Assembly: GCA_035462175.1 (NCBI GenBank)
Contig: DATHUP010000049.1
Span: 52,614-116,613 of the forward strand
Direction of reading: 5' to 3'
Length of the DNA stretch: 64,000 bases
Source of the DNA: Acidimicrobiia bacterium
Lineage (GTDB): Bacteria > Actinomycetota > Acidimicrobiia > Spongiisociales > ZC4RG35
The notes beneath the pieces are model-generated. The model saw nothing but the letters and a program-made list of their open reading frames with translations, had not been told where the DNA came from and made no database searches. This document shows, one piece after another, positions 7,891-26,401 of the stretch (position 1 is the stretch's first letter; every line of letters starts with the position of its first letter). The position numbers and the translations under genes are program-made.

Positions 7891-8930
7891 TCAAGGGGTG
7901 GTTGCAACGATGAGTTCGTCGAGCACTTCGGCGGGTGTCCTGTATGCGTGGGTCTTGCGGGGTCGCTGGTTGAGTTCGTCGGCGACGAGGTCGAGGTCGT
8001 TTTCGGTGAGTGGCGAGTAGTTGGCTCCTCGCGGGAAGTATTGGCGTAGGAGTCGGTTGGTGTTCTCGACGGTGCCCCGCTGCCAGGGGGAGTGTGGATC
8101 GCAGAAGTAGACGTCGATTCCGGTATCGACGGTGAACTGGGCGTGTTCTCCCATCTCGGACCCTTGATCCCAGGTGAGCGTTCTGGTGAGTGCTTGGGGA
8201 AGACTTCCGATCTTTCTGGCGATGGCATCTCGGACTGTTTCGGCACGACGGTTGTCGGGGAGGTGGAGCAGCATCACGAATCGGCTGGTCCGTTCGACGA
8301 GGACCCCTATCTGGGAGGCACCGTCTCGAGTTCCGATGATCAGGTCGCCTTCCCAGTGGCCGGGCACAGCCCGGTCGTCGACTTCGGCGGGTCGTTCCGA
8401 GATCATCACCATGTCTTTGAGCTTTCCCCGGCCTAGAACCCGGTAGCCACGGGGACGACGACGAGCCCGACCCGTGCGCAGAGCATGGCGCAACTCTCGG
8501 TCCAAACCGCCGCGACCCTGCAGATACAGCGACTTGTAGATGGTCTCGTGAGACACCCTCCAGTTTGGATCATCCGGATGTTCCAAGCGGAGCCTGCCCG
8601 CGATCTGCTGTGGCGACCAGCAGCGCCGAAGCCGGTGAGTCACCTCCGCGGCCAGCTCTGAGTTGGCCACCAGCTTCAACGGTTTCGGCCTCCGCGCCCG
8701 CTCTCCCGCAATCCGATGCGCCTTCCACGCCCCATACCGCTCCCGGCCACCATTACGAGCCACCTCCCGGCATATGGTCGAAGCCGGCCGACCCAACAGT
8801 CTCGCCGCCTCGCTCAACGACCGGTCGAACCGGATAGCCCTCTCGATCACATACCGCTCATCCCTCGACAACCGAGCACCAGCCACTCACTCCTCCAATC
8901 GCCGTTGCAACGATTGTTAGAACTTTTCGA
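7880..8930 (-). mobile_element. IS30-family insertion sequence (boundaries approximate)
   Basis: Contains a complete IS30 transposase; palindromic GTTGCAACGA motifs near both ends (~7901 and ~8905); sits next to a degenerate HNH gene. Confidence 0.7.
7891..8886 (-). CDS. IS30 family transposase (DDE)
   Basis: N-terminal HTH; HWEGDLI...DQGSEM...NTNRLLRQYFPRG catalytic DDE region typical of IS30. Confidence 0.85.
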   Translation of the reverse strand: MAGARLSRDERYVIERAIRFDRSLSEAARLLGRPASTICREVARNGGRERYGAWKAHRIAGERARRPKPLKLVANSELAAEVTHRLRRCWSPQQIAGRLRLEHPDDPNWRVSHETIYKSLYLQGRGGLDRELRHALRTGRARRRPRGYRVLGRGKLKDMVMISERPAEVDDRAVPGHWEGDLIIGTRDGASQIGVLVERTSRFVMLLHLPDNRRAETVRDAIARKIGSLPQALTRTLTWDQGSEMGEHAQFTVDTGIDVYFCDPHSPWQRGTVENTNRLLRQYFPRGANYSPLTENDLDLVADELNQRPRKTHAYRTPAEVLDELIVATTP

Positions 8931-11316: not shown

Positions 11317-11363
11317 CTTCCGTTGATTTACCGCACGAGAGGGCCCGTTCTAAGCTCCAGACG

Positions 11364-11774
11364 GTGACTCTGGCCGACTATCTCCCGATCGGCATCATGT
11401 TCCTGCTGGCTGCCGGCTTCGTGGCGGTGTCCCTGATCGCGTCCCGATTGGTCCGTCCCGATCGGCCCACCGAGGCCAAGCTCGATCCTTACGAGAGCGG
11501 GATCGTTCCCGAGACCGAGCCGTCGCAACGCTTCCCGGTCAAGTTCTACCTGGTGGCGATGCTCTTCGTGATCTTCGACGTCGAGATCATCTTCCTCTTC
11601 GCCTGGGCCTCGATCTACGACCGGCTCGGCTGGTACGGAGTGGCGGCCATCCTCATCTTCACATTCTTCGTGGCCGAGACCCTGGCCTATGTCTGGAAAC
11701 GCGGCGCGCTGGATTGGAACGTGCACCGCCGCTCTCGCTACATCGCCGCCGACGCATCGGACGAAGCAGCCTGA
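11364..11774 (+). CDS. nuoA: NADH-quinone oxidoreductase subunit A (cluster 1)
   Basis: Three TM helices; conserved YESGI / FDVEIIF motifs. Confidence 0.85.
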
Positions 11775-12241
11775 TGGCAACCACGGCCCCGGGGAACCTG
11801 CTCATGACCACCGTCGACAAGGCGGCACGGTGGGCCCGGACCCGGTCGATGTTCCCCGCCTCGTTCGGTCTGGCCTGCTGCGCCATCGAGATGATGGCGA
11901 CCGGAGCCGCCCACTACGACCTGGGCCGGTTCGGGATGGAAGTGTTCCGGGCTTCGCCCCGGCAGTCGGACCTCATGGTGGTGGCAGGACGGGTGAGTCA
12001 GAAGATGGCCCCGGTCCTCCGCCAGGTCTACGACCAGATGCCAGACCCGAAGTGGGTGATCTCGATGGGCGCCTGTGCCTCCACCGGGGGGATGTTCAAC
12101 AACTACGCCCTGGTCCAAGGGGTGGACCAGGTGGTGCCGGTGGACATCTACGTGCCCGGCTGTCCGCCCGGGCCGCAGAGCCTGATGCACGGGATCCTCA
12201 CCCTCCACGACAAGATCATGAAAGGCGAGATCTCCAATTGA
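11774..12241 (+). CDS. nuoB: NADH-quinone oxidoreductase subunit B
   Basis: [10 protein letters not shown] ... GACASTGG ... PGCPP Fe-S cluster N2 motifs; start overlaps the nuoA stop (TGATG). Confidence 0.85.
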
Positions 12242-12783
12242 GCGACGAGCACGGCAGCCCAGAGGCCGAGACGGTGGGCGAGGCCACGGTCCTCGAGCGG
12301 CTCCTGCCCGGGCAATCGGTGTTGCGGGGCCTCTTCGAGCGCTTCGAGGACGTCACCTGGGAGCTCTCCATAGACCAGGACGTGGCCCGGATCCCCAACG
12401 GGCGCTGGTTCGAGTTCGGCACGGCGGCGAAGGAAGCGGGCTTCGAGGTCTGCGTCGACGTAACCGCCGTGGATTGGATGCGGCAACGACCGGAGCGGTT
12501 CGAAGTGGTGGCCAACCTGCTCTCCATGCAGCATCGGCTCCGGCTCCGGATGATCACCACGGCACCGCGTCAGGAGCCGGCGGTCGCCTCCCTGGTTCCG
12601 ATCTGGCCCGGGGCCAACTTCCCCGAGCGCGAGGCCTACGACATGTTCGGCATCGTGTTCGAGGGCCATCCCGACTTGACCCGGATCCTGATGCCCGACG
12701 AATGGGAGGGTCACCCTCTGCGCAAGGACTTCGGCGTCGGTTCGGTACCGGTCCAGTTCAAGGAAAGCCACAAGGTGAATTGA
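12238..12783 (+). CDS. nuoC: NADH-quinone oxidoreductase subunit C
   Basis: 30-kDa subunit motifs ([22 protein letters not shown]); probable TTG start overlapping the nuoB stop. Confidence 0.7.
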
Positions 12784-12784
12784 G

Positions 12785-14134
12785 ATGACCGACGACACCG
12801 AGACCACTCAGACCCTCGACGTCTGGGTGGCTGGGACCGAAGAGCCCGAGCTCGCCGCTACTGACGAGGGTGCCCAGGAGATCTCGACCGACGAGTCCGA
12901 GACCCGTCTCGACGAGCAGTTCGGCAGGGTGGTCGAGGACGACTACGTCTTCGACGACGACGCCGACCCCGAGGAGCGGATGATCCTCAACATGGGCCCG
13001 CAGCATCCGTCGACGCACGGCGTGCTCCGCCTCCAGATCGAGTTGGAGGGTGAGATCATCCGCCGCACCAAGCCGATCATCGGATACCTCCACACCGGGA
13101 TGGAGAAGACCGGCGAGCAGCTCACGTTCGCCCAGGGCGGGACCAACGTCACCCGCATGGACTACCTGTCCCCGTTCCACAACGAGCTGGCGTACTCGCT
13201 GGCGGTGGAGCGGCTGCTCGGGATCGAGGTCCCGCACCGGGCCGCCGCCATCCGGGTGCTCATGACCGAGTTGAACCGCTGCTCGTCGCATTTGGTGGCG
13301 CTGGCCACCAACGGGATGGACATCGGTGCGGTCTCGATGATGATCTACGGGTTTCGGGAGCGGGAGCAGATCCTGGCCTTCTTCGAGAAGACCACCGGCC
13401 TCCGCATGAATCACAACTACATCCGGCCCGGCGGTGTCGCCGCCGATCTCCCTCCGGGCTGGAAGGACGACGTCGCCGCCATCATCGAGGAGCTGCCGAA
13501 GCGGATCCAGCAGTACGACGACCTTCTCGAGAACAACCCGATCTGGGTGGGTCGGACCAGGGGAGTGGGTGTGATCTCCGCCGAAGAGGCGATCTCCTAT
13601 GGCATCACCGGGCCGACCCTGCGCTCGACCGGTGTCGACTGGGACCTGCGAAAGGCGTTCCCCTACAGCGGGATCGAGCAGTACGAGTTCGACGTGCCGC
13701 TAGGAGAGCATGGCGATGTCTACGACCGCTACCGGATCAGGGTGGTGGAGATCGAGCAATCGCTGCGCATCGTCGAGCAGGTGATGGACACCATGCCGAA
13801 GGGCGACTTCCGGGTCGACGACCGCAAGGTGACCCCCCCGCCCCGGGGGCGGATCGACGAGTCGATGGAGGCGCTGATCCATCATTTCAAGCTGTTCACC
13901 GAGGGCTACAAGGTGCCGCCGGGAGAAACCTATGTCGCCGTGGAGTCGCCGCGGGGCGAGCTGGGCTGTTATCTCGCCTCCGACGGAGGCGCCATTCCAT
14001 ATCGGATGCACATCAGGGCTCCGTCGTTCTCCAACCTGCAGGCTCTCCCCATCACCATGGCCGACTCCCTCATGGCCGACACCGTCGCCACCATCGCCTC
14101 CCTCGACCCGGTGATGGGCGACGTCGACCGGTAA
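12785..14134 (+). CDS. nuoD: NADH-quinone oxidoreductase subunit D (with ~55-aa acidic N-terminal extension)
   Basis: 49-kDa subunit motifs (LNMGPQHPSTHGVLRL, RAPSFSNL). Confidence 0.9.
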   Translation: MTDDTETTQTLDVWVAGTEEPELAATDEGAQEISTDESETRLDEQFGRVVEDDYVFDDDADPEERMILNMGPQHPSTHGVLRLQIELEGEIIRRTKPIIGYLHTGMEKTGEQLTFAQGGTNVTRMDYLSPFHNELAYSLAVERLLGIEVPHRAAAIRVLMTELNRCSSHLVALATNGMDIGAVSMMIYGFREREQILAFFEKTTGLRMNHNYIRPGGVAADLPPGWKDDVAAIIEELPKRIQQYDDLLENNPIWVGRTRGVGVISAEEAISYGITGPTLRSTGVDWDLRKAFPYSGIEQYEFDVPLGEHGDVYDRYRIRVVEIEQSLRIVEQVMDTMPKGDFRVDDRKVTPPPRGRIDESMEALIHHFKLFTEGYKVPPGETYVAVESPRGELGCYLASDGGAIPYRMHIRAPSFSNLQALPITMADSLMADTVATIASLDPVMGDVDR

Positions 14135-14143
14135 AGAACCGCG

Positions 14144-14190
14144 TTCCTAATGCAGGGCGTCACGTATACGTGACGCGGTGCATAAAGAAT
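14144..14190. repeat. copy A of a ~47-bp nested palindromic element (TTCCTAATGCA-N3-CGTCACG-N4-CGTGACG-N3-TGCAT[TA]A[GA]GAA)
   Basis: Outer 11-bp and inner 7-8-bp inverted repeats; reverse complement of copy C (about 90% identity); lies between the nuoD stop and the stop of the minus-strand cassette. Confidence 0.75.
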
Positions 14191-15176
14191 CAACCGAACG
14201 GCGGCGTAGTTGTGGTCGGCACCGGATTGTCGTCGACCGGCGTCTCGTCCTCTTCGATCGTTGGAAACCCCGATGACGGAGGAGGTACCTCGGTCAGTCG
14301 GCCGTACTCGTCGTAGCGGGAGAGCTGGAGCGGATAGAGATTGGGGATGATCCGCCCGAACCTGTCTCGGTCAAAGGACACGGTGCCACTGTCGTATTGG
14401 ATCACACCGGCGCCCGGGTCGAACTCGACCTCCTCGTAGACATATGGCGGGAGGGATAGAAGTGGACGGCCGGCCTGATCGAACAGCAGCACGTCGACTG
14501 GATTCCCATCGAGGTCGTAGGCGTAGATGTTCTCCACCGGTGTGCCATCGGCGGTGACCAGACGGTCGAACCAGAATTCGACCGAAGGCTCCACGTAGTG
14601 GCTGGGGGTGTTCACCAACGTCGCCATCAGTCCGAGGCCTGCAGCAAGGGAGAACACGAACGAACCTGCCGTCGGAAGATGGATCCCGGGTCGGGTCAGG
14701 TCGCGCCACTTGTCGAGCCAGATGGAGAGCCACGTGGCGCCGGCGACCAGGGCCAGGCCAGTCAGGGAGCTGGAACCAAACCGGGGGATGGGAAAGTGGG
14801 TGAACGGGTCTTGGTAGTAGAGCAAAGCCCATGCGGTCACCAGCATCCACCCACGAATCCATATCCAGAACGGCCTGATCGAGGGCCAGTGGATGATCTC
14901 GCTCAACCGGATCGCCCATGCGTCGGCGCGTGCCCGCGCTGTCACCAGCAACCCGGGCGCGGGATGATCAATGTCCAGCCCCGCACTCTGCCGGAACTCG
15001 GCCACGAACGATTCCGGTGACCCGAGGATGGTCTCGACCTCCTCGTCCCCGAGCTCGGCGAGATGTGCTTCCAGATCCTGCACCACCTCCTCGCGATCCT
15101 CGGCGGCGAGGTCGGCGAGACCCTCGGCGACCCGCGCGAGATAGGCGGCTTTCGACGGTGACAACGTGATGCTCAT
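14190..15176 (-). CDS. PadR-associated membrane protein with N-terminal HAAS/DUF1700-like helical domain
   Basis: N-terminus (AAYLARVAEGLADLAAEDREEVVQDLEAHLAELGDEE...SPESFVAEF) matches the DUF1700/HAAS pattern found downstream of PadR regulators; about 4 TM helices; overlaps the padR stop. Confidence 0.5.
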   Translation of the reverse strand: MSITLSPSKAAYLARVAEGLADLAAEDREEVVQDLEAHLAELGDEEVETILGSPESFVAEFRQSAGLDIDHPAPGLLVTARARADAWAIRLSEIIHWPSIRPFWIWIRGWMLVTAWALLYYQDPFTHFPIPRFGSSSLTGLALVAGATWLSIWLDKWRDLTRPGIHLPTAGSFVFSLAAGLGLMATLVNTPSHYVEPSVEFWFDRLVTADGTPVENIYAYDLDGNPVDVLLFDQAGRPLLSLPPYVYEEVEFDPGAGVIQYDSGTVSFDRDRFGRIIPNLYPLQLSRYDEYGRLTEVPPPSSGFPTIEEDETPVDDNPVPTTTTPPFG

Positions 15177-15499
15177 TCCTCTTCTCCCTCGAGCAGTTGG
15201 TTCATGACCCCGGCGAAGTCGTGCCAGGTCTTCTTGGAGCGGTCCAACAGGTCGGTGCCGGCTCGGTTCAGCCCGTAGTACTTCCGCGCCGGGCCTTCCT
15301 CGGACGGAACCACCTCGGAGGTGAGGTATCCACCCCCGAAGAGGCGACGCAAGGTCCCGTAGACCGAAGCGTCTCCGACCTCGTCGAAGCCACTGACCCG
15401 AAGTTGTCGCACCAAGTCGTAGCCATAGGTGCGGCCCCGACTCAGAACGGCGAGCACCGCCGTGTCGAGCACCCCCTTGAGCAGCTGGGTCGAGTCCAT
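15173..15499 (-). CDS. PadR-family transcriptional regulator
   Basis: Winged HTH (LLKGVLDTAVLAVLSRGRTYGYDLVRQL...YGTLRRL) and PadR C-terminal helix; probable start at the MDSTQLLKG methionine (the ORF track extends to 15601). Confidence 0.75.
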   Translation of the reverse strand: MDSTQLLKGVLDTAVLAVLSRGRTYGYDLVRQLRVSGFDEVGDASVYGTLRRLFGGGYLTSEVVPSEEGPARKYYGLNRAGTDLLDRSKKTWHDFAGVMNQLLEGEEE

Positions 15500-15565
15500 T
15501 CGCACTCCAATCGTCGCTAGTGCGACTTGCACACTACCACGCAATACGGAGTAGTGATCGGTCAA

Positions 15566-15611
15566 TTCCGAATGCAGCCCGTCACGGATACGCGACGCCA
15601 TGCATTAGGAA
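15566..15611. promoter_or_regulatory. copy B of the nested palindromic element; candidate PadR autoregulatory operator
   Basis: TTCCGAATGCA-gcc-CGTCACG-gata-CGCGACG-cca-TGCATTAGGAA, about 65 nt upstream of the probable padR start and just downstream of the amidohydrolase stop. Confidence 0.5.
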
Positions 15612-15615
15612 TCGT

Positions 15616-17079
15616 CTACGGCCAGCCCTGGTGGTGGAGCCTGAACTCACGCACCTCCTCGCTCGTCGACGGTCCCCAGGTCATGGTGGGGACGAGGTGC
15701 TCGACCCGGGCCGCCTCGAGCTCGTCGACGGTGAATCCCACCGGCTCGGTGATGGGGTCGATCTGGTAGAGGCTGGCCGCGTTCCAGCCCAGGATCTTCG
15801 CTTTCATCCCCCGCGTGAGCTCGGGGTATCCATGGCGCTCGCGCAGGTCCGCCGGGATTTGGAAGGCGCGCAGGGCGTCGATCTGACCCTGGGGCGACCC
15901 GTAGAAGATGGAGTCGGTGCCCCAGAGCAGGTTGTCCTCCCCGACCGCCACCAACAGTTTGCCCAGGGCATGTGCCGCCTCGTCGGGACGACGGAGTAGG
16001 TGCCACCACGTCGACCCGATCTCGGCATACACGTTCTGCCCAGGGCCGACCCCGGCTCGTCGCAGCGAGTCGACCAGCCGGTTCACCCCGAGATGGGCGG
16101 TGTCCTCGGTGAAGGGACCCTCCCTCTGCGCCACCTCGAACCCGGAGTGGTAGACGACGAACCGTACATCGGGATGGTTTTTCGCCGCGGGGCCGACGTC
16201 CTCGGGCGACCCAAACCGGGTCTGGTCGGAGAGCCCCTTGTGCACGAACAGGATGGGCGCCCCGGATCCCGCCACTGCATCGAGGAACCGGTCTCCCACC
16301 GCGGGGAGGTCGGGGTCGTGGTCGTCGAGCCACCAGTGGATCCCCGAGGGGAAGTGGGTGAAGGTCTTCCAGCCGGAGATGGTGTTCTCGGCGACGGTCC
16401 GCTGCATCTCTTCCACCACCGATTCGATCGGGGCGGTCTGAGGAAGCGCAAGTGCGTTGACCAATACCCGTTCGTCGCCAGACAGCCCCTGCACCATCTG
16501 CCGGGTCTCCTCCATCACCTCGGGCGAGAGAGGGCTGCCTTCTGGGTGGATCGGCAGTCCGGAGAGGGCGACCATCGTGGTATCCGATCTGATGAAGATC
16601 TCCTCGAGGAAGTGGTTCATCGAGAAACACGCCCGGGGATCGTCCTCGTCCTCGCAGCGTGCCTGGGGGAAGTTCCGACCCCAGAACCAGTCGCCCCGGG
16701 TCGAGGGGTCCAGGTCGTATTCGAGGAGATGGCCCTGGACGTCGAAGACGAACTGAGTCGGGCCCAAGACGGCGCGGGCAGCGTCGGTGTCATGGCGGGA
16801 GGCCGGGTCGAACGGGTACCAGAGCCCGGGTTGGAGGCCGAGGGCGGAGGCCATGACGGAATCGATGGCAGCAAGTGAGACGGCGACGGCGGAGGCCGAG
16901 CGGAGGAACTCGCGTCGGCTCAGACCGGTGCGTCGGATGGCCTCGTCGATGCCGGCGCGGGCGGTCTTCTCCATCTCGCGGCGGACCGGTGTTATCTGCT
17001 CCGGCTCGTATTCGCCATTCGAGCACTGCCCGAAGGCGATGGGAAGGCCCGGGTCCTCGTCGCGCCACGATCGGGACAT
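15616..17079 (-). CDS. amidohydrolase-family (TIM-barrel metal-dependent hydrolase) protein with TAT signal
   Basis: Twin-arginine motif (SRREFLRSASAVAVSLAA) followed by amidohydrolase_2-like motifs (FVHKGL, VVYHSGFE, WGTDS). Confidence 0.65.
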   Translation of the reverse strand: MSRSWRDEDPGLPIAFGQCSNGEYEPEQITPVRREMEKTARAGIDEAIRRTGLSRREFLRSASAVAVSLAAIDSVMASALGLQPGLWYPFDPASRHDTDAARAVLGPTQFVFDVQGHLLEYDLDPSTRGDWFWGRNFPQARCEDEDDPRACFSMNHFLEEIFIRSDTTMVALSGLPIHPEGSPLSPEVMEETRQMVQGLSGDERVLVNALALPQTAPIESVVEEMQRTVAENTISGWKTFTHFPSGIHWWLDDHDPDLPAVGDRFLDAVAGSGAPILFVHKGLSDQTRFGSPEDVGPAAKNHPDVRFVVYHSGFEVAQREGPFTEDTAHLGVNRLVDSLRRAGVGPGQNVYAEIGSTWWHLLRRPDEAAHALGKLLVAVGEDNLLWGTDSIFYGSPQGQIDALRAFQIPADLRERHGYPELTRGMKAKILGWNAASLYQIDPITEPVGFTVDELEAARVEHLVPTMTWGPSTSEEVREFRLHHQGWP

Positions 17080-17119
17080 CGATGTTGATTCTGCCCCACA
17101 ACCGTGAGGTATGGGTCCG

Positions 17120-17166
17120 ATTCTTTATGCAGTCCGTCACGCATACGTGACGCCCTGCATTAGGAA
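17120..17166. promoter_or_regulatory. copy C of the nested palindromic element; candidate operator in the divergent amidohydrolase / nuoE control region
   Basis: gATTCTTTATGCA-gtc-CGTCACG-cata-CGTGACG-ccc-TGCATTAGGAA; 41-87 nt upstream of the amidohydrolase start and 60 nt upstream of the nuoE start. Confidence 0.5.
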
Positions 17167-17225
17167 CGCGGTGTGACCCCCCGGGTTTCGCTCGGGATAG
17201 GGGTGCTACCTAATCTCCGGCCTCG

Positions 17226-17849
17226 ATGAGTCAATGGTCGGAGGCCACTCAGGAGCGCGCCCGGCAGATCATGGCGCGTTATCCGCAGAAGCGGTCGGCG
17301 GTCATGCCGTTGCTCTATCTGGCCATGGCCGAGGAGGGCCATCTCAGCGACGAGGGGATGGAGGAAGTCGGCCGCTGGGTCGGCATCACCCCGGCCCAGG
17401 TGCAGGCAGTGGCCACCTTCTACACGATGTACAAGCGGAGACCGACCGGGAGGTACCTGATCTCGTGTTGCACCTCGATATCCTGCATGCTGCTTGGTGC
17501 TGACGACGTTCTTCACGGGGTCGAGGACGAGTCGGGCGTGCCCCACGGCGAGACCGATCCCGACGGGCTCTTCTCGGTGGAGCACGTCGAGTGCATCGGC
17601 GCCTGCGGGGGAGCGCCTGCGGTCCAGGTCAACTACGAGCTGATCGAGGGAGTGACCCCCGAGAAGGCCAGGGAGCTGGTGAGGTGGCTCGGCAAAGCCC
17701 GCCCCGAAGTGGTCAACGGCGACGAGATGCAGGAGCTGTTCGGCGGGGTTCGCAGCTTCGATTGGGCGATCAGGGAGGAAGACGGGGCGGTTGGCCCCTA
17801 TCCGGCCTTCCAGCCGCTGGGCACGGTGGGAAGCGAGGGCGGCGCTTGA
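17226..17849 (+). CDS. nuoE: NADH-quinone oxidoreductase subunit E
   Basis: 24-kDa subunit, 2Fe-2S motifs (CCTSISC...CIGAC). Confidence 0.9.
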   Translation: MSQWSEATQERARQIMARYPQKRSAVMPLLYLAMAEEGHLSDEGMEEVGRWVGITPAQVQAVATFYTMYKRRPTGRYLISCCTSISCMLLGADDVLHGVEDESGVPHGETDPDGLFSVEHVECIGACGGAPAVQVNYELIEGVTPEKARELVRWLGKARPEVVNGDEMQELFGGVRSFDWAIREEDGAVGPYPAFQPLGTVGSEGGA

Positions 17850-19159
17850 CGACGCCACTCGTTGTCACCAAGCGGATGACCGAGTTCCCCGCCGACTCGC
17901 ACAGCATCGACCGTTACGAGGCAACCGGCGGCTACGAGCAGGCCCGCCGCGCCCTGGGGATGACCCGGGACGAGCTGGTGGAGGAGATCAAGGCCTCGGG
18001 TCTTCTCGGGCGGGGCGGAGCCGCCTTCCCCGCCGGCCTCAAGTGGAGCTTTCTCGCCCCGGCCCGGCCCTCGTTCCTCGTGGTCAACGCCGACGAGTCG
18101 GAGCCGGGCACGTTCAAGGACCGCCAGTTGCTGGAACGAGACCCGCATCAGATGTTGGAGGGGGTGATGATCACCGCCATCGCCAACGAGGCGCACCACG
18201 CTTTCGTCTACATCCGTGGCGAGTACCCGAAGCCGGCTCGCCGGGTCCAGGCCGCAGTCGACGAGGCGTATGCCCGGGGGTATCTGGGAGGGGGGATCTT
18301 CGGCTCGGATTACGACCTGGATGTGATCGTCCACCTCGGAGCCGGCGCCTACATCTGCGGTGAGGAGACCGCCCTGATCAACAGTCTCGAAGGTCTCCGC
18401 GGCGAGCCGCGTCTCAAGCCGCCCTACTTCCCCGCGGCGAAGGGCCTCTACATGCAGCCCACCATCGTCAACAACGTCGAGACGGTGTCCAACCTGCCTC
18501 ACATCCTGGCGATGGGCGCCGAGGCCTACACCCAACTCGGTCACCCGGACGACACCGGGACCTTCCTCATCTCGGTCTCGGGTCATGTCAAGAAGCCGGG
18601 CAACTACGAGCTTCCCCACGGGATCACCTGGCGTCAGCTCATCTTCGACATTGCCGGGGGCATCGCCGGAGACCGGGAGTTGAAAGCGATCATCCCCGGC
18701 GGCGCCTCCGCGCCCTGGTTCGTCCCCGAGATCCACCTCGACGACCGGATCACCAAAGACGTCTGCGCCGAGGCGGGCTCGATGCTCGGGTCGGGTGCCG
18801 TAATCGTGATGGACGAGAACACCTGCATGGTGCGCGCTGCCGAGCGTCTGGTGCGTTTCTTCGCCCACGAGTCGTGCGGCCAATGCACCCCGTGCCGTGA
18901 GGGAACCACATGGATGGAGATGATCCTGCGCCGAATCGAGGAAGGTCAGGGGCGGGCCATCGATCTCGACCTCCTTCTCGACGTCTCCGACAACATCAGC
19001 GTCGGTCTCAACTGGCCCCCGAAGATGACCACCATCTGCCCCCTCGGCCCGTCGGCGGTGTCTCCGATCCTCGCCCTCCGCGACTACTTCCGCGACGAGG
19101 TCCAGGCCCACGTGGAATTGGGCGGATGTCCATTAGAACTGGCGAAGGCTGCAGTATGA
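17846..19159 (+). CDS. nuoF: NADH-quinone oxidoreductase subunit F (start uncertain: TTG 17846 or ATG 17876)
   Basis: 51-kDa subunit; NAD/FMN site GRGGAAFP, Fe-S site ESCGQCTPCREG. Confidence 0.85.
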   Translation: MTTPLVVTKRMTEFPADSHSIDRYEATGGYEQARRALGMTRDELVEEIKASGLLGRGGAAFPAGLKWSFLAPARPSFLVVNADESEPGTFKDRQLLERDPHQMLEGVMITAIANEAHHAFVYIRGEYPKPARRVQAAVDEAYARGYLGGGIFGSDYDLDVIVHLGAGAYICGEETALINSLEGLRGEPRLKPPYFPAAKGLYMQPTIVNNVETVSNLPHILAMGAEAYTQLGHPDDTGTFLISVSGHVKKPGNYELPHGITWRQLIFDIAGGIAGDRELKAIIPGGASAPWFVPEIHLDDRITKDVCAEAGSMLGSGAVIVMDENTCMVRAAERLVRFFAHESCGQCTPCREGTTWMEMILRRIEEGQGRAIDLDLLLDVSDNISVGLNWPPKMTTICPLGPSAVSPILALRDYFRDEVQAHVELGGCPLELAKAAV

Positions 19160-19315
19160 GCCTGACGCGAACCACTTCTGGGGGGACCACTACTTCTGGG
19201 GGGCGACCCCCAGACCCCCGCTCGCTCCGAGCCGTAAGTGCCAAGACATCACGGCGGCCAACCTCAGTGGTCGCGCCGGGCTGTGATCGCGAATGAGGCT
19301 CAAACCGTGAGCGAG

Positions 19316-21742
19316 ATGGGCCAAACGGTCAGCATCACCATCGACGGGGTGGAGCATCGGGTGGCGGCCGGGTCGCTGCTGATCAGGGCGGCCCAGGACA
19401 CCGGGACCTACATCCCCCGTTTCTGCTGGCACGAGCGGATGAAGCCGGTGGGGATGTGCCGGATGTGCCTGGTGGAGGTGGAGGGGCCGCGGGGGCCGAT
19501 GCTGGTCACGGCATGTACCAACGAGGTCGTCGACGGGATGGTGGTCGACACCGGGAACGCCACGGTGAGGAAGGCCCAGGAGGGGGTACTCGAGTTCCTC
19601 CTCGCCAACCACCCCCTCGACTGCCCTGTGTGCGACAAGGGAGGGGAATGCCCGCTTCAGGACCAGGCGTTCTCGCACGGGCCGGGAGAGAGCAGGTTCG
19701 TCGAGATCAAGCGCAACTACGAGAAGCCGATCGCGATCTCGAGCCTGGTCCTCCTCGACCGGGAGCGATGCATTCTCTGCGCTCGCTGCACCCGGTTCTC
19801 CGAAGAGATCAGTGGCGACCCGCTCATCGAGTTCAAGGCGAGGGCCAACATCACCGAGGTCAACACCTTTCCGGACCACCCCTTCGCCTCCTACTTCTCG
19901 GGCAACACCATCCAGATCTGCCCGGTCGGTGCCCTCACCTCGGTTCAGTACAGATTTCGCGCCCGGCCCTGGGACCTGCAGATGGTGGAGAGCTCCGGTC
20001 TCCACGACACCGCCCACCCGCGGGTGTCGGTCCATGCCAGCCAGAACCAGATCCTCCGGCTGGTGGGAGTGGACAACGACGCAACCAACCATGGCTGGCT
20101 CTCCGACAAGGAGCGGTTCGGCTTCGAGTACCTCGGCTCCGAGGAGCGTCTCACCGCACCGCTGGTTCGGAAAGACGGCCGACTGATCGAGGTGGATTGG
20201 GCCGAAGCCCTGGAGCTGGTGGCGGAGAGGATCGGGCGGATCAGGGACGAACACGGGGGTGAGTCGTTTGCAGTGATCGGCGGCGCTCACGGCACCAACG
20301 AGGACGCCTACGCCCTTGCCAAGTTCGCCCGTGTGGTGCTCGGGACCAACAACGTCGACGCCCGGCTCGATGACACGCTCGCATCGCATTTCCTGGCGGC
20401 CACGGTCGATCGAGCCCGGATCGCCGACATCGACACCGCCGACACCATCCTCGTCTGGGGGCCAGACCTGAAAGAAGAGCATCCCACCCTCTACCTGCGG
20501 GTGCGGATGGCGGCGCAAGAGCTCGGCGTCCGGCTGGTCGTGGTCCATCCCCGGGCCACCGGTCTCGACGACCGCGCCACCATCAAGGTCGAGTACCGCC
20601 CCGGGGCGGGCTTCGCCCTCCTCGACGAGATCGCCGAGGGCCGTCACCCCGAGCTGAGTGAGGCCCTCAGCGCAGAGCGGGTCGTGGTCTTCGCCGGGCA
20701 GGCCTCGTTCGCCGATGGTCCCCGGTTGGCCGAGGCGGTGGCGGCATACGTGCGGAGCAAGGCAGGCTCCACCCGCATCCTCCCCCTGGCTCGGAGGGGC
20801 AACCTCTTTGGCGCCCTGGACATGGGCCTCGCCCCCGACCTGCTTCCCGGGCGGGTGGGCGACGACGAGGCGGGCCGGGCGGCCCTCGCCGAAGCGTGGG
20901 GCGAGATCCCGGCGGCCCGGGGCCAGGACACCAAGGGGATGCTCGGAGGGCTGGCTTCGGGGGAGATCAGGTTCCTCCTCCTGGTCGGCTCCGACCCTGT
21001 CCGCGACCTGCCCGACCCGAGACCGGCACTCCCCGCCCTCGAGGGTGCGGAGTCCGTGGTCTCGATCGACCTGTTCCTCAACGACTCCAACCGGGAGGCC
21101 GACGTCATCTTCCCCGCAGCCGGCTTCACGGAAAAGGAGGGGACCGTGACGAACCTCGAGGGGCGGGTGCAGAAGGTGAACATGCTCGCCCCCGGCCCGG
21201 GTCAGACACGACCCGACTGGGCGATCCTGGCCGATCTGGCCGACAGGGCGGGTCGCTCGATCGGTCTTTCCTCCGCGGACACCATCGCCAAGGAGATCTC
21301 CGATCTGGCACCTGTCTACGCCGGGATCACCTGGGACCACCTGGAGTGGGAGGCCAGGGACGGGGCGGTCGTTCCGCTCTCCGGTGTCTCACCGCTCACT
21401 CACATCCCGGTCTCCCTGAAAGGCGACATCGCCCCGTCGGCGGAGTTGACGCTGCATGTGGGGCGGACCCTGTACGACGACGGGGTGATGATGAGGCACA
21501 GCCCCAATCTCCATCCTCTCGCCCCCGGGCCCCTGGCTCATCTCAACCCCGAAGATGCCAAGCGGGCAGGGGCGCTCCATGGTCACACGGTGAGAGTGGT
21601 GACCAAACACGGTGAGGGCGAGTTCTCCGCCGTGCTCGACGAGGGGACCCCGCCCGGCGTGGTCTACGTCCCTTTCAACCAGCCGGGCGCAGCTCCGCTG
21701 GGCACCGACGCCGTGGTCCGGGTAACGACGGTGGGCCGGTGA
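19316..21742 (+). CDS. nuoG: NADH-quinone oxidoreductase subunit G
   Basis: 75-kDa subunit: N-terminal 2Fe-2S/4Fe-4S Cys clusters (CRMCLVEV, CPVCDKGGECPLQD), molybdopterin-like domain; ATG 19316 (GTG 19307 is also in frame). Confidence 0.85.
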   Translation: MGQTVSITIDGVEHRVAAGSLLIRAAQDTGTYIPRFCWHERMKPVGMCRMCLVEVEGPRGPMLVTACTNEVVDGMVVDTGNATVRKAQEGVLEFLLANHPLDCPVCDKGGECPLQDQAFSHGPGESRFVEIKRNYEKPIAISSLVLLDRERCILCARCTRFSEEISGDPLIEFKARANITEVNTFPDHPFASYFSGNTIQICPVGALTSVQYRFRARPWDLQMVESSGLHDTAHPRVSVHASQNQILRLVGVDNDATNHGWLSDKERFGFEYLGSEERLTAPLVRKDGRLIEVDWAEALELVAERIGRIRDEHGGESFAVIGGAHGTNEDAYALAKFARVVLGTNNVDARLDDTLASHFLAATVDRARIADIDTADTILVWGPDLKEEHPTLYLRVRMAAQELGVRLVVVHPRATGLDDRATIKVEYRPGAGFALLDEIAEGRHPELSEALSAERVVVFAGQASFADGPRLAEAVAAYVRSKAGSTRILPLARRGNLFGALDMGLAPDLLPGRVGDDEAGRAALAEAWGEIPAARGQDTKGMLGGLASGEIRFLLLVGSDPVRDLPDPRPALPALEGAESVVSIDLFLNDSNREADVIFPAAGFTEKEGTVTNLEGRVQKVNMLAPGPGQTRPDWAILADLADRAGRSIGLSSADTIAKEISDLAPVYAGITWDHLEWEARDGAVVPLSGVSPLTHIPVSLKGDIAPSAELTLHVGRTLYDDGVMMRHSPNLHPLAPGPLAHLNPEDAKRAGALHGHTVRVVTKHGEGEFSAVLDEGTPPGVVYVPFNQPGAAPLGTDAVVRVTTVGR

Positions 21743-22842
21743 GCGGGGCCCAGTTCTGGATCGTGGTGCTGCGGGTGGTGCTCACGTTCGGCCTGCTGCT
21801 CCTGGTCACACTGCTCAACGTGTGGGCGGAGCGGAAGATCCTGGCCGATATGCAGAGCAGGATCGGGCCGAAACGGGCCGGCCCGTTCGGGATTCTCCAG
21901 ACCGTGGCCGACGGGCTCAAGCTGTTCTTCAAGGAGGCCGTCACCCCGCGCAAGGTCGAGTTGGGCATGTACCTCCTCGCCCCGTTCCTGGCCGTGGTCC
22001 CGGCCTTCCTCATCTTCATGATGGTGCCCTGGGGCAGGCCATTCATGATCGGGGACAACGAGGTCGCGCTGCAGGGAGCCGATCTCAACATCGGCCTGCT
22101 CTTCATCCTGGCCATGTCGTCGCTGGCGGTGTACTCGGTGGTCCTTGCCGGGTGGTCCTCCGGCTCCAAGTACCCCCTCCTCGGCGGGGTGAGGGCGACG
22201 GCCCAGGCGATCTCCTACGAGGCGGCGATGGGCTTGGCCATGGTGGCCGTGGTCATGTTCACCGCCACCCAAGGCGACGGAGGCACGCTCTCCCTGGCCG
22301 AAATCGTCAATCGTCAGGCCGGCACCTGGGGCGATGTGATCCCGGCACTGGAGCCGATCCTCCGCTTCGTCCCGAGATGGAACCTGTTCCCCCAAATCGT
22401 GGCCTTCGTCATCTTCTTCGTGGCCATCGTCGCCGAGACCAACCGCGCCCCGTTCGACCTGGTCGAGGCGGAGCAGGAGATCGTCGGCTTCCACACCGAG
22501 TACTCGGGGATGAGGTTCGCCATGTTCTTCCTCGCCGAATACGTCAACATCTTCTCTATGTGCGCCATCGCCGCCACCCTCTTCCTCGGTGGCTGGAACG
22601 GGCCAACCTTCGAAGGGTCGGTCCCCGGGTTCGTCTCCGCCCTCCTCCCAACGGTGTGGTTCCTGGCCAAGACCTACTTCCTGGTCTTCATCTTCTTCTG
22701 GATCAGAGCCACGCTTCCCCGGCTCCGCTACGACCAGCTGATGCAGGTGGGCTGGAAACGACTCATCCCGGCCGCTCTGGGCTGGCTCGTCGTTTCGGCA
22801 ACTGTCATATCGTTCCGTCAATTCGGTCCACCCTGGAGCTGA
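21739..22842 (+). CDS. nuoH: NADH-quinone oxidoreductase subunit H
   Basis: ND1-like polytopic protein; GTGA overlap with nuoG. Confidence 0.9.
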   Translation: MSGAQFWIVVLRVVLTFGLLLLVTLLNVWAERKILADMQSRIGPKRAGPFGILQTVADGLKLFFKEAVTPRKVELGMYLLAPFLAVVPAFLIFMMVPWGRPFMIGDNEVALQGADLNIGLLFILAMSSLAVYSVVLAGWSSGSKYPLLGGVRATAQAISYEAAMGLAMVAVVMFTATQGDGGTLSLAEIVNRQAGTWGDVIPALEPILRFVPRWNLFPQIVAFVIFFVAIVAETNRAPFDLVEAEQEIVGFHTEYSGMRFAMFFLAEYVNIFSMCAIAATLFLGGWNGPTFEGSVPGFVSALLPTVWFLAKTYFLVFIFFWIRATLPRLRYDQLMQVGWKRLIPAALGWLVVSATVISFRQFGPPWS

Positions 22843-22845
22843 GCA

Positions 22846-23501
22846 TGGGTCTCATAGCAGAGCTGATCAGAGGTCTCCGGGTGACTGGTGGGACGATGCT
22901 CCGCACCATCGCGGGCTCTGGGTTGGTCACCACCGAGTACCCAAAGGAGATGCGGGTCAAGCCGCAGCGCTTCCACGGGCGTCATGTGCTCAACCGCTAC
23001 CCCGACGGCATGGAGAAGTGCATCGGCTGCGAGCTCTGTGCCGGGGCGTGCCCCGCCGACTGCATCTACGTGCGGGGGATGGACAACGACCCGGAGGCCC
23101 CGACCTCGCCGGGAGAGAGATTCGGCTACGTGTACGAGATCAACATGCTCCGTTGCATCTTCTGCGGTCTGTGTGTCGAGGCATGCCCCACCGAGGCGAT
23201 CACCATGACCCATCTCTTCGAGTTCTCCACCACCAACCGCGAGGACGCGGTCTACACCAAAGAGACGCTGCTCATGGAGCGGGACGGGACCGTGCCTCAC
23301 ATGTTCCCCGACGACGAGTTGGCCGATCTCGGCGAGCTCGACACCGCCGACGGGTGGATGCGGGCCACGGCCTCCTCGGGGGTCGCCGCCTACGAGGGGA
23401 CCCTGATGTGGCAGGGCACCCCCGGGCCGGCCGACTGGGCTCCCGAGCCCACCCAGGAGGAGCGAGACCGCAGGAGTGGTGAGGACGAGACCGATGGTTG
23501 A
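22846..23501 (+). CDS. nuoI: NADH-quinone oxidoreductase subunit I (with ~60-aa C-terminal extension)
   Basis: Two 4Fe-4S ferredoxin motifs (CIGCELCAGACP, CIFCGLCVEACP). Confidence 0.85.
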
Positions 23502-24018
23502 GGGCGTCCTCTTCGTCATAGCCGGGCTCGCCGCCCTGGCCGGGGCGGTGACCGTCGTGGTGGCGAGGAACCCGGTCTACTCGGCCGTGGGCCTGCTCGG
23601 CACCTTGTTCTCGGTGGCCGTGCTCTACGTGCTCCAGCTGGCCCACCTCGTGGCCGCGGTCCAGGTGATCGTCTACGCCGGAGCGGTGATGACCTTGTTC
23701 CTCTTCGTGATCATGCTCATCGGCGTGGACAAAGAGGAGACCCGGTCGGAGTCACTCCCGCTGCAGCGGATATGGGTCGGGATGTTGGCCGTGGGGATGA
23801 TCCTCTTCGCCGCCGGCGTCACCCTGTTCGGGGACTTCGAGTGGGTGCCGGCCGCCTCGGCGAGGTTCATCGAGAGCAACACCAACGGCACGATCCAGGC
23901 CATCGCCGAGCCCCTGTTCACCGATTGGGTGCTTGCCTTCGAAGCCACGGCGCTGCTCTTGACCATCGCCGCGGCGGCCGCCGTGGTGCTGGCCCAGTTC
24001 AAGAGAAAGCGATCCTGA
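23494..24018 (+). CDS. nuoJ: NADH-quinone oxidoreductase subunit J
   Basis: ND6-like; overlaps the nuoI end. Confidence 0.8.
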
Positions 24019-24320
24019 TGGTCCCGGTCGACTGGTACATGGGGCTGGCTGCTGCGCTGTTCCTCATCGGCGCCCTCGGCATGTTGCTCAGACGCAACGC
24101 ACTGGTCATGTTCATGTGCATCGAGCTGATGCTCAACGCAGTCAACCTGACCCTCATCTCGGCGGGCCGGGTCATGAACGACATCAACGGGCAGGTGGCG
24201 GTGTTCTTCATCCTGGTGGTTGCCGCCGCCGAGGTGGTGGTCGGCCTGGCCATCATCGTGGCCATCTTCCGCCGGCGCTCTACGGCCTCGGTAGACGAGT
24301 TGAGCGAGATGAGAGGCTGA
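24018..24320 (+). CDS. nuoK: NADH-quinone oxidoreductase subunit K
   Basis: ND4L-like, 100 aa, ATGA-type overlap with nuoJ. Confidence 0.85.
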
Positions 24321-24340
24321 TGATGCTTCGCATCATCAGC

Positions 24341-24413
24341 CGCTACGAGCGACGAGCCACGAGCCATGAGCCAGAAGCTCGTTGCTCGTTGCTCGTTGCT
24401 CGTTGCTCATTGC
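24341..24413. repeat. intercistronic heptamer-periodic hairpin repeat, copy R1 (GAGCNAC arm / GCTCGTT arm)
   Basis: Left arm cgctacgagcgacgagccacgagccatgagc, loop cagaa, right arm (gctcgtt)x4 gctcattgc; preceded by small hairpin tgatgc-ttc-gcatca; lies between nuoK and nuoL. Confidence 0.8.
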
Positions 24414-24426
24414 TGGAGGTCACAAC

Positions 24427-26310
24427 GTGACCGACTATCTCTGGCTGGTCATTGCCCTTCCGCTGGCCGGGTCTCTGTTCTTGCACTTTTTCGGGCGGTA
24501 TGTGCGCGAGCCGCTGAGTGGGTGGCTGGCCTCGGTGGCGATCGGGGGTGCGTTCGTCATCGCTGCTGTGGCGGCTTGGCCCTTCCTCGAGGGAGGTGAG
24601 GCGGCGAGCACGATCGCGCTCTGGGAGTGGATGCCCGCGATCGGGGCGTCATTCGAGCTGTTGTGGGACCCGCTGGCCGCACTGATGACCCTGGTCGTGA
24701 CCGGGGTGGGCACCCTGATCCACGTCTTCGCCATCGGCTACATGCACGGTGACGAGAGGTTCCATCGTTTCTTCACCTACCTCAACCTGTTCGCCGCCTC
24801 CATGCTCACCCTGGTCCTCGCCGGGAACTACGCCATGTTGTTCCTCGGCTGGGAGCTGGTCGGGCTCTGCTCCTACCTGCTCATCGGGTTCTGGTTCACC
24901 CGGCCCACCGCCTCCGCTGCGGCCAAGAAGGCCTTCGTCGTCAACCGGATCGGCGACTTCGGGTTCATGATCGGCTTGATGCTGGTCTTCGCCACCTTCG
25001 GCACGCTCTCCTTCGGCGACGTGTTCGAGAGAGCCGGCGCCGAGATGAGCAGCGGGCTGGCCACGGCCATCGGCCTGCTCTTCCTGCTCGGGGCGGCGGG
25101 CAAGTCGGCTCAGATCCCTCTCTACGTGTGGCTGCCCGACGCCATGGAGGGTCCCACCCCGGTGTCGGCCCTGATCCATGCCGCCACCATGGTCACCGCC
25201 GGCGTCTACGTGATCGCCCGCTCCGCCCCCATCTACGAGTTGACCCCGTTCGCCTCGACGGTGGTGGCCAGCGTCGGGGCCCTCACCGCGATTTGGGCCG
25301 CCTCGATCGCCCTGGCCCAGCGCGACATCAAGCGCGTCCTCGCCTACTCGACCATCTCCCAACTCGGGTTCATGTTCCTCGCAGTGGGCACCGCCGCCTA
25401 TGTGGCCGGAGTCTTCCACCTCATGACCCACGCCTTTTTCAAGGCCCTCCTCTTCCTCGGTGCCGGATCGGTGATCCATGCCATGAGCGACGAGCAGGAC
25501 ATGCACAAGATGGGTGGGTTGCGGCGCAGGATGCCGATCACCGCGGCCACGATGGGGATCGCCTCCCTGGCCCTGGCCGGGATCCCTCCCCTGGCCGGTT
25601 TCTGGTCCAAGGACGAGATCCTCGCCGCGGGTTTCGCCCGGGGCGGCTGGTACTACTTCCTCTGGGTCATCGGGCTGGTCACAGCCCTGCTCACCGCCTT
25701 CTACATCACGAGGTTGTGGGCCCTGGTCTTTCTCGGAGAGCCGCGCTGGGCCGAGGGCGCCCAACCGCACGAATCGCCAAGGGTGATGACACTCCCCCTC
25801 ATCGCATTGGCCGCACTCTCCGTGGTGGGTGGGTTGGTCAACACGCCGTTCCGCCTCACCCTGGAGCACTTCCTCGAGCCAAGCTTCGAGTTGGTCCATC
25901 TGCAGCACGCCCCTGACGACTGGGCGCTCCTGGGGATCTTGGCCGGTCTCTCCACCCTGGCCGCACTCGGCGGCGCCGCGGCTGGGTACCTGGCCTACAA
26001 CCGGCCGCCGGAGAGATGGAGACGGTTCGAGGATTCCTTCCAACCGCTCTGGGGGGCATGGGAGCAGGCGTACGGGGTCGACGATCTCTACGGGAGAGCC
26101 CTGGTCGCGCCCGGCCGGCGACTGGCCGAGATCGGTGCCTTCGACTTCGACGCCAGAGTGGTCGATGGGGCGGTCAACGGTGTGGGCCGCCTGGTCCGGG
26201 ACGTCGGCGAATGGGCCCGCCCCCTCCAGACCGGTTTCGTCCGAAACTACGGAGTGTTGTTCCTCGCAGGTGCCCTCGTGGTCATCACCTGGCTGGTGGC
26301 GGGCGGATGA
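24427..26310 (+). CDS. nuoL: NADH-quinone oxidoreductase subunit L
   Basis: ND5-like antiporter subunit; GTG start preceded by GGAGG (the ORF-track start at 24382 reads through the repeat and is rejected). Confidence 0.85.
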   Translation: MTDYLWLVIALPLAGSLFLHFFGRYVREPLSGWLASVAIGGAFVIAAVAAWPFLEGGEAASTIALWEWMPAIGASFELLWDPLAALMTLVVTGVGTLIHVFAIGYMHGDERFHRFFTYLNLFAASMLTLVLAGNYAMLFLGWELVGLCSYLLIGFWFTRPTASAAAKKAFVVNRIGDFGFMIGLMLVFATFGTLSFGDVFERAGAEMSSGLATAIGLLFLLGAAGKSAQIPLYVWLPDAMEGPTPVSALIHAATMVTAGVYVIARSAPIYELTPFASTVVASVGALTAIWAASIALAQRDIKRVLAYSTISQLGFMFLAVGTAAYVAGVFHLMTHAFFKALLFLGAGSVIHAMSDEQDMHKMGGLRRRMPITAATMGIASLALAGIPPLAGFWSKDEILAAGFARGGWYYFLWVIGLVTALLTAFYITRLWALVFLGEPRWAEGAQPHESPRVMTLPLIALAALSVVGGLVNTPFRLTLEHFLEPSFELVHLQHAPDDWALLGILAGLSTLAALGGAAAGYLAYNRPPERWRRFEDSFQPLWGAWEQAYGVDDLYGRALVAPGRRLAEIGAFDFDARVVDGAVNGVGRLVRDVGEWARPLQTGFVRNYGVLFLAGALVVITWLVAGG

Positions 26311-26321
26311 GCAAGCTCATC

Positions 26322-26392
26322 CGCCGTTCTACGTTTTACGTGTTACGTCCTACGTACGACGTAGGGCGTAGGACGTATGACGGGGCGACCGG
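26322..26392. repeat. intercistronic heptamer-periodic hairpin, TACG-type variant
   Basis: ttctacg ttttacg tgttacg tcctacg / tacgacg tagggcg taggacg tatgacg; arms complementary (tcctacg vs cgtagga); between nuoL and nuoM. Confidence 0.7.
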
Positions 26393-26401
26393 AGGTCGCC
26401 C

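Follow-up and report, generated by a model that had tools for sequence, protein, structure and literature searches.

The window analyzed here, a stretch of 64,000 nucleotides from an Acidimicrobiia bacterium (positions 52,614 to 116,613 of the forward strand of contig DATHUP010000049.1, assembly GCA_035462175.1), contains all 14 nuo genes of complex I in order on the + strand. It matches part of a 118.9-kb contig in a soil-type metagenome assembly at ENA (ERZ27272640, contig k141_368896). NuoA-D are at 11364-14134 and nuoE-N at 17226-29388, as determined from open reading frame (ORF) lists and, for nuoC, nuoD, nuoE and nuoF, from Pfam matches. Between nuoD and nuoE, an Amidohydro_2 gene, padR and a gene for a HAAS-domain membrane protein, all on the minus strand, take up 3 kb antisense to nuo, and three copies of a palindrome (elements A, B and C) fill the three intergenic gaps around these genes. 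An earlier sequence-only reading had regarded the trio as a regulatory module inserted as a unit, with the palindromes as its boundaries and as sites for PadR. We found that the palindrome is a dispersed extragenic repeat, similar to repetitive extragenic palindromic (REP) sequences, that lies between genes and mostly at gene 3' ends. The features of the region are as follows.

12785..14134, + strand: nuoD, last gene of the nuoA-D block (Pfam Complex1_49kDa, E=2e-116; orthologues at 61-90% identity in 80 genomes)
14138..14195, no strand assigned: element A, REP-like palindrome; conserved arm 3 nt past the nuoD stop, variable arm touching the HAAS gene stop
14190..15176, - strand: HAAS-domain membrane protein, 328 aa (Pfam PF22564, E=2.3e-8, residues 11-60)
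15173..15499, - strand: padR, 108 aa, PadR-like winged-helix regulator (PF03551, E=2e-15, 57 bits against a cut-off of 27)
15532..15556, - strand: imperfect 25-bp palindrome CACTACTCCGTATTGCGTGGTAGTG, candidate PadR operator and padR-HAAS promoter (from conservation; putative function)
15560..15617, no strand assigned: element B; conserved arm beginning right at the amidohydrolase stop codon, upstream of the candidate padR operator
15616..17079, - strand: Amidohydro_2-family protein, 487 aa (Pfam PF04909, E=6e-15)
17115..17172, no strand assigned: element C, between the divergent amidohydrolase and nuoE starts
17184..17225, + strand: conserved nuoE-upstream motif, candidate internal promoter (from conservation in relatives; putative function)
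17226..17849, + strand: nuoE, first gene of the nuoE-N block (Pfam 2Fe-2S_thioredx, E=1e-47)
17846..19159, + strand: nuoF

Pfam and the ORF coordinates confirmed the minus-strand trio between nuoD and nuoE that had been described from the sequence. The accompanying statement that nuoD and nuoE are normally contiguous also held; the two genes abut or overlap in most of 80 species representatives. Compared to the contiguous 14-gene nuoA-N operon of most bacteria, the window has the same 14 genes in the same order (the gene content of L001 and L208 agrees; labels beginning with L denote the other loci compared), but here 3 kb of antisense genes break in after nuoD. The GC content of this cassette was not deviant.

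Only three copies of the palindrome were present in the window, compared to 0 matches in 100 shuffles. The element had originally been described as a 47-bp palindrome in three copies. The copies are real, but the full element is approximately 58 nt long and asymmetric, with one conserved and one variable arm. The copies all fold, on either strand, as three-tier hairpins with energies of -22 to -28 kcal/mol; the hairpin of A was -22 to -24.5 kcal/mol as RNA from either strand, and that of B was -26.9 kcal/mol on minus-strand RNA. Elements A and C were 93% complementary over 54 nt and had 7 differences over 58 columns. Copies from the unrelated loci L130 and L107 were just as close, so A and C were rejected as a uniquely related pair; their likeness reflects the closeness of both to the family consensus.

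Several known kinds of element were compared with the palindrome. There was no Rfam 15 covariance-model match in 13000-18500 at E<=1, and no target duplication was visible at A or C. A consensus promoter and terminator scan returned 0 terminator-like sites in 13900-17400, and its sole promoter match was inside the HAAS coding region and was disregarded. An integron attC site was rejected from our own reading and general knowledge: the outer GTTCCTA does not fit GTTRRRY, the center is conserved, the copies are dispersed rather than arrayed, and there is no integrase. None of these identities, whether canonical terminator, attC site, transposon end or known Rfam family, fits the palindrome.

We scanned JGI metagenome contigs with a relaxed palindromic pattern of 19 specified bases. 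At least 120 stretches matched, and six unrelated AT-rich matches were removed from the repeat set. Among the matches listed there were at least 123 distinct copies, nearly all with different flanks. The family consensus is ACCGCGTTCCTAATGCAGGGCGTCACG-TATA-CGTGACGCCCTGCATTAGGAACGCGGT, with a 4-nt loop. The conserved arm, (ACCGCG)TTCCTAATGCAGGGCGTCACG, is nearly invariant. The other arm is variable and partly complementary to it, differing at three inner positions and in the outer part (TAGGAA, AAAGAA, TNGGTT or AACGTT). Neither arm is a palindrome by itself, and the unit consists of a single hairpin, not a doublet of inverted REPs.

The coding direction of the flanks was classified by third-position GC, with both flanks classified for 98 copies. 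Fifty-four of the 98 were between convergent genes, 39 were between tandem genes and 5 were between divergent genes, which makes the divergent context of C the rare one for the family; 0 were inside genes. A gene 3' end adjoined 93 of the 98 copies. Of 63 copies, 26 had the last base of the stop codon on the conserved-arm side at alignment column 0 or 1, and 49 had it no more than five bases from there. This placement 0-1 nt past a stop codon is the most unusual feature of the family. The stop codons beside the conserved arm were TGA (37), TAG (16) and TAA (10), and because all three are used, they are apparently part of the genes and not of the element. Extra copies occurred at approximately 1 per 20 kb on element-bearing contigs, a density that matches the 3 per 64 kb of the window. 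The family was essentially absent from approximately 1 Mb of the nuo loci of related species, with one copy in L015 and a possible decayed copy, seen by eye, in L012. At L088 (1009-1138) and L089 (787-915), a single gene is followed by two copies, inverted relative to each other and approximately 70 nt apart, an arrangement that resembles REPIN-like doublets or BIME-like clusters.

The closest known systems are the REP and REPIN sequences mobilized by RAYT transposases in Pseudomonas and Enterobacteria (PMC3116915, PMC3337134). Like these, the window family is short, extragenic, palindromic, multi-copy, lineage-restricted and located at gene 3' ends; copies sometimes occur as adjacent pairs, and orthologous copies persist between related species (PMC3116915, PMC3337134). 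The window family differs in being a single asymmetric hairpin of approximately 58 nt with one conserved and one variable arm, in an estimated density (approximately 1 per 20 kb) below that of classical REPs, and in the unusual precision with which its conserved arm starts 0-1 nt past the stop. No RAYT or Y1 transposase turned up for it, and no systematic search was made. A GTAG-type head is typical of REPs, and the window family is without one. We did not file the family as a RAYT-mobilized REPIN because it has yielded no transposase, it consists of one asymmetric hairpin per unit, and its per-genome copy number is an estimate from contig density. In Escherichia coli, REPs near termination codons reportedly reduce the expression of the gene ahead of them by way of ribosome stalling and trans-translation (Liang, Rudd and Deutscher, Mol Cell 2015). 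The window family likewise places a hairpin repeat within a few nt of a stop codon, but what applies to a subset there is the rule here.

Related loci were then compared for genes and repeats separately. Elements A, B and C were all present in L115, which has 93.6% DNA identity to the window, and A and/or B were present in L133, L142 and L200; the position of A was occupied in L115, L133, L142, L200 and L207. In L207 (approximately 80% identical), A and B were present, C was missing, and the spacer between the amidohydrolase and nuoE was shorter by approximately 58 nt. L001, L002 and L010 carried the same trio in the same place with none of these elements, their amidohydrolase being 84% and their PadR 92.6% identical to those of the window. 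In L001, where 66 nt separate the two genes, B was absent from the orthologous spacer. An element was found right past the nuoD stop in L015 with a different gene next, and L012 had an apparent decayed copy after nuoD when read by eye. A trio without elements, a missing C and an element beside another gene indicate that the elements are secondary colonizers and not cassette termini.

The synteny comparison proposed with the earlier reading therefore went against it, since relatives keep the trio without the same flanking elements (L001, and L207 without C). Its picture of a trio delimited by the elements was not sustained either, given a dispersed repeat in more than 100 unrelated intergenic contexts. 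As to a mobile cassette or transposon, the repeats are dispersed, there is no recombinase among the three genes, and relatives have the genes without the repeats.

The outer trio boundaries in L001 and L010 had a different inverted repeat, which is G/C-rich, 61 nt long and 98% complementary. Repeats of this family (GGTACTCCCCCCAA..., CTCACTTCGTTCGCT...) lie at 5860-5974 and 8872-9083 of L001, inverted at the outer boundaries of the trio, and also in L002 and L010. L001 and L002 come from almost the same population, and their assemblies have different numbers of G/C-rich sub-repeats. Unrelated palindromic or tandem repeats were present in the nuoD-nuoE gap of L024 (approximately 3430-3560), L022 (approximately 1905-1985) and L031 (approximately 8340-8490). 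It seems that REP-like families particular to each lineage have settled in this gap.

We retrieved 80 GTDB species representatives with NuoD, compared the content of their nuoD-nuoE junctions, and constructed a neighbor-joining tree of NuoD. The trio was at the junction in the window and in L001, and the amidohydrolase alone was there in L005, L013 and L017. L042 had an ArsR-type gene and the amidohydrolase without padR-HAAS. The junction was empty in L008, L009 and L011, the NuoD proteins of which are 88-90% identical to that of the window. Within the clade nearest the window, these states were a mosaic on the NuoD tree. In slightly more distant species, the genes at the junction were, by Pfam, an APH-aminotransferase fusion (L044), an ABC ATPase with a luciferase-like monooxygenase and an SDR (L046), an amine oxidase (L047) and a VTT/DedA protein (L050); L053 had an un-annotated insert of approximately 1.3 kb. 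L142 had SnoaL/NTF2-like genes besides the trio. In L142, 37 nt from the nuoD 3' end, with the stop codon and TCGGTT, occur as an exact direct repeat (928-964 and 1573-1609) on the two sides of an insert of approximately 645 nt; the insert opens with a copy of the element and contains an NTF2-like gene. This duplication looks like the footprint of gene entry into the junction.

The mosaic of junction states indicates that nuoD|nuoE is an insertion hot spot and that the trio need not have arrived as a unit. The junction data fit a stepwise gain or a partial loss but not the insertion of one block with A and C as its ends. The claim of insertion as a unit finds no support, given the loci with the amidohydrolase alone and L042, where it accompanies an ArsR-type gene. 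Among L048, L049, L051, L054 and L057, nuoE was not found downstream of nuoD (approximately 7 kb of DNA was available for L048, L054 and L057; the contigs of L049 and L051 are short and stop before that), and the nuo operon may be split into two distant loci in these five.

The padR start is fixed at 15499 by orthologues and by the gene call of the source. An ATG at 15601 was rejected as the padR start; it is inside element B and is contradicted by both the orthologues and the source gene call. The HAAS start overlaps the padR stop codon, giving a 4-nt gene overlap at 15173-15176. The translation of the HAAS gene shows GSP, a GxP motif, at residues 52-54, with hydrophobic segments past residue 100. 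PadR and HAAS genes form a recognized sensor/regulator dyad (PMC11237479, Ravi et al., mSystems 2024), in which control of PadR activity by HAAS upon a signal is a prediction only. The window pair shows the sequence traits of such a dyad: a standalone PadR-like winged-helix protein and an adjacent gene with an N-terminal HAAS, GxP, and transmembrane/sensor regions. As in PMC11237479, the regulator is followed by the membrane protein with overlapping stop and start codons. In contrast to the published dyads, there is no PspC, Toastrack or LiaI-LiaF-TM partner, and the pair is inside the nuo operon beside an Amidohydro_2 gene. The suggestion that padR and the HAAS gene are a sensor/regulator pair agrees with this literature.

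Upstream of padR is a 25-bp imperfect palindrome, CACTACTCCGTAYTGCGTGGTAGTG (CACTAC...GTAGTG), that overlaps a -10-like TAGTGT hexamer fitting TANNNT. It occurs once in the 64-kb window, with 0 occurrences expected by chance. A 21-nt core is identical save two C/T positions in the window, L115, L133, L142, L207 and L001, and the flanks vary. L001, with its 92.6% identical PadR, retains the 25-bp palindrome and lacks the A/B/C family element. The 25-bp palindrome is thus conserved together with the padR promoter, as a PadR operator should be, and elements A, B and C, absent from L001, are not. It is the best candidate for the PadR operator on this pattern of conservation, and as an operator it would imply autoregulation of padR-HAAS. 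The proposal that PadR binds A, B and C was not borne out, because the cis-element conserved with padR is this different palindrome, found upstream of padR only.

A second PadR paralogue (approximately 37% identity) was observed in L100, L116, L141, L145 and L175 (for example, L141 1474-1917). The gene that follows it encodes a membrane protein of approximately 260 aa that by eye is HAAS-like with an NfeD-like end.

Directly upstream of nuoE, the window has the motif GGTTTCGC-N19-CCTAATCTCCGGC-N4-ATG, which in degenerate form reads GGTTTCRC-N19-CCTAWTCTCCGGC-N4-ATG and spans approximately 42 nt. It holds a TAATCT (TANNNT) hexamer 9 nt ahead of the ATG and no Shine-Dalgarno sequence. The motif was kept in 15 of 19 relatives having any nuoD-nuoE gap, at sites that include L008, L009, L011, L012, L024, L026, L028, L067, L001, L005, L013, L115 and L207. 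In the cassette-free L008, L009 and L011, it takes up nearly the whole gap of 53-69 nt. The N-terminal codons of nuoE (MSQW/MSHW/MDHW) were also kept in most relatives compared. A simple sigma-70 scan did not call the motif as a promoter. We regard it as a candidate internal promoter with a very short or absent leader. A similar CTAAGCTCC box is found upstream of nuoA (approximately 11330-11366), 7 nt ahead of its GTG start. Since the motif is conserved without the cassette, any separate nuoE-N promoter would predate the cassette and need not involve PadR. Of the separate, PadR-responsive nuoE promoter that had been suggested, the nuoE-proximal promoter stays plausible, but the PadR response does not follow, as the motif is kept where the cassette and a junction padR are absent.

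The amidohydrolase had 1945 homologues, and the annotated ones among the matches listed were from Acidimicrobiia/Actinomycetota metagenome-assembled genomes (MAGs). It had no NCBIfam or PDB sequence match, and hence no closer name. Distant homologues (66-76% identity) are located elsewhere in genomes, without nuo or padR nearby. The twin-arginine motif SRREFLRS was invariant in an alignment of 8 homologues, at residues 54-60, behind a conserved 50-aa N-terminal segment, and residues 1-60 contain an invariant LPIxF..SNGEY segment ahead of it. The n-region is unusually long and conserved for a twin-arginine translocation (Tat) signal. The protein had been called Tat-secreted; the motif is there in all 8 homologues, but export itself is only plausible. 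A conserved CAGAAT was also read from the sequence 8 nt upstream of the amidohydrolase start.

Taken together, these data make it likely, in our estimate, that the trio is a long-standing, lineage-specific occupant of the junction, that the amidohydrolase and padR-HAAS are separable, and that the palindromes are dispersed REP-like repeats and not cassette parts. The nuoD|nuoE junction would act as a landing pad for accessory genes in one Acidimicrobiia clade. The repeat family would have colonized the intergenic DNA of the lineage, almost always at gene 3' ends and typically 0-1 nt past the stop. By orientation, A would be the 3'-end hairpin of nuoD, B that of the amidohydrolase, and C an atypical promoter-side copy. 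The RNA hairpins probably serve as 3'-end stabilizers, terminators or insulators between convergent or tandem units. PadR most likely controls its own padR-HAAS unit by way of the conserved 25-bp palindrome overlapping the padR -10 region, and the conserved promoter-like motif ahead of nuoE probably drives the transcription of nuoE-N. If that motif predates the cassette, this would explain the tolerance of insertions at the junction.

Some observations weigh against this explanation or are left over by it. The operator and promoter assignments draw on conservation and hexamer resemblance alone. The hairpins have no U-tract (no T run), so they are not canonical intrinsic terminators. There was no compensatory covariation among 123 copies (score 0.093 versus 0.088 in shuffles, with 80 of 500 shuffles reaching it), and because this is no better than shuffles, structural selection is not claimed. 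The per-genome copy number is an extrapolation from metagenome contigs and not a genome count. No family transposase was identified; the genes between paired copies were inspected by eye only, with none transposase-like and no systematic search. The three window copies are in three adjacent gaps out of approximately 60, for which we estimate a probability of approximately 0.002 under uniform placement, suggesting that some local factor favors the nuoD-nuoE region. This clustering remains unexplained by the favored reading, as do the two lineages with inverted repeats of different families at the same two boundaries and the L142 duplication with its insert. Finally, the unrelated second padR-HAAS-like locus also has an element, approximately 90 nt upstream of padR. 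There, the element touches the stop codon of the preceding gene, and a different conserved palindrome, GGTACYTAGGAGTACC, lies beside the padR start. The element at that locus could be a coincidence, yet it may leave a small opening for a link to PadR.

Other explanations were considered for these data. The palindromes could be immobile sites under independent selection, serving as bidirectional terminator/attenuator hairpins or being bound by a global DNA- or RNA-binding protein. The almost invariant conserved arm and inner stem, across genomes with coding DNA only approximately 80% identical, the strong placement at gene 3' ends, and the persistence of orthologous A and B across several species would suit this. 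We nevertheless consider it quite unlikely; orthologous sites are polymorphic for presence (B in L001, C in L207), the family is nearly absent from the approximately 1 Mb of related nuo loci, covariation is lacking, and a near-identical family of approximately 58 nt is not expected from convergent selection. A higher probability, though still a low one, goes to a previously undescribed mobile or templated Acidimicrobiia element that targets the site just 3' of stops, its conserved arm beginning 0-1 nt past TGA, TAG or TAA. It might also help recruit genes, in view of the L142 insert that opens with the element between the duplicated nuoD ends, with nuoD|nuoE as a repeat-rich landing pad beside a conserved internal nuoE promoter.

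A role for the inverted A and C as recombination substrates, allowing a 3-kb inversion that switches orientation relative to nuo or a gain or loss of the cassette between repeats, appears very improbable. No recombinase gene is within or beside the cassette, the amidohydrolase or trio is antisense to nuo in every relative examined with no inverted form, arms of 54-61 nt are short for RecA-dependent inversion, and such repeats are missing from L005 and L013, where the amidohydrolase is alone; this is so even with inverted repeats of different families at the same outer boundaries in the window (54 nt, 93%) and L001 (61 nt, 98%), a highly variable junction content, and the L142 insert that opens with an element and is flanked by the exact 37-nt nuoD duplication. 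The least probable account in our judgment is a self-contained sensor-regulator-effector module that arrived whole between A and C, with PadR on A, B and C controlling the amidohydrolase and nuoE-N. It would account for elements at all three boundaries, the 93% complementary A and C, the location of C between the divergent amidohydrolase and nuoE starts, the predicted signaling dyad, and the element upstream of the second padR paralogue. It is opposed by more than 100 copies in unrelated contexts, mostly right past stops with no padR nearby; by the L001 cassette, which keeps a 92.6% identical PadR and the 25-bp palindrome without an element; by the missing C in L207; by the species with the amidohydrolase alone at the junction; and by a nuoE motif that is conserved without any cassette.

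The favored reading is thus of an ordinary accessory-gene insertion at a complex I hot spot, decorated by a new but conventional-looking REP-like family. Inverted palindromes that flank a gene block mimic cassette ends or operators, and genome-wide copies of such a repeat would mislead the annotation of mobile modules in MAGs. The palindrome associated with padR provides a concrete candidate operator for one HAAS-PadR dyad. The physical split of the complex I operon at nuoD|nuoE makes separate control of the NADH-oxidizing module and the membrane arm testable, and the uncultured Acidimicrobiia lineage contributes a new family of palindromic repeats that abut stop codons.

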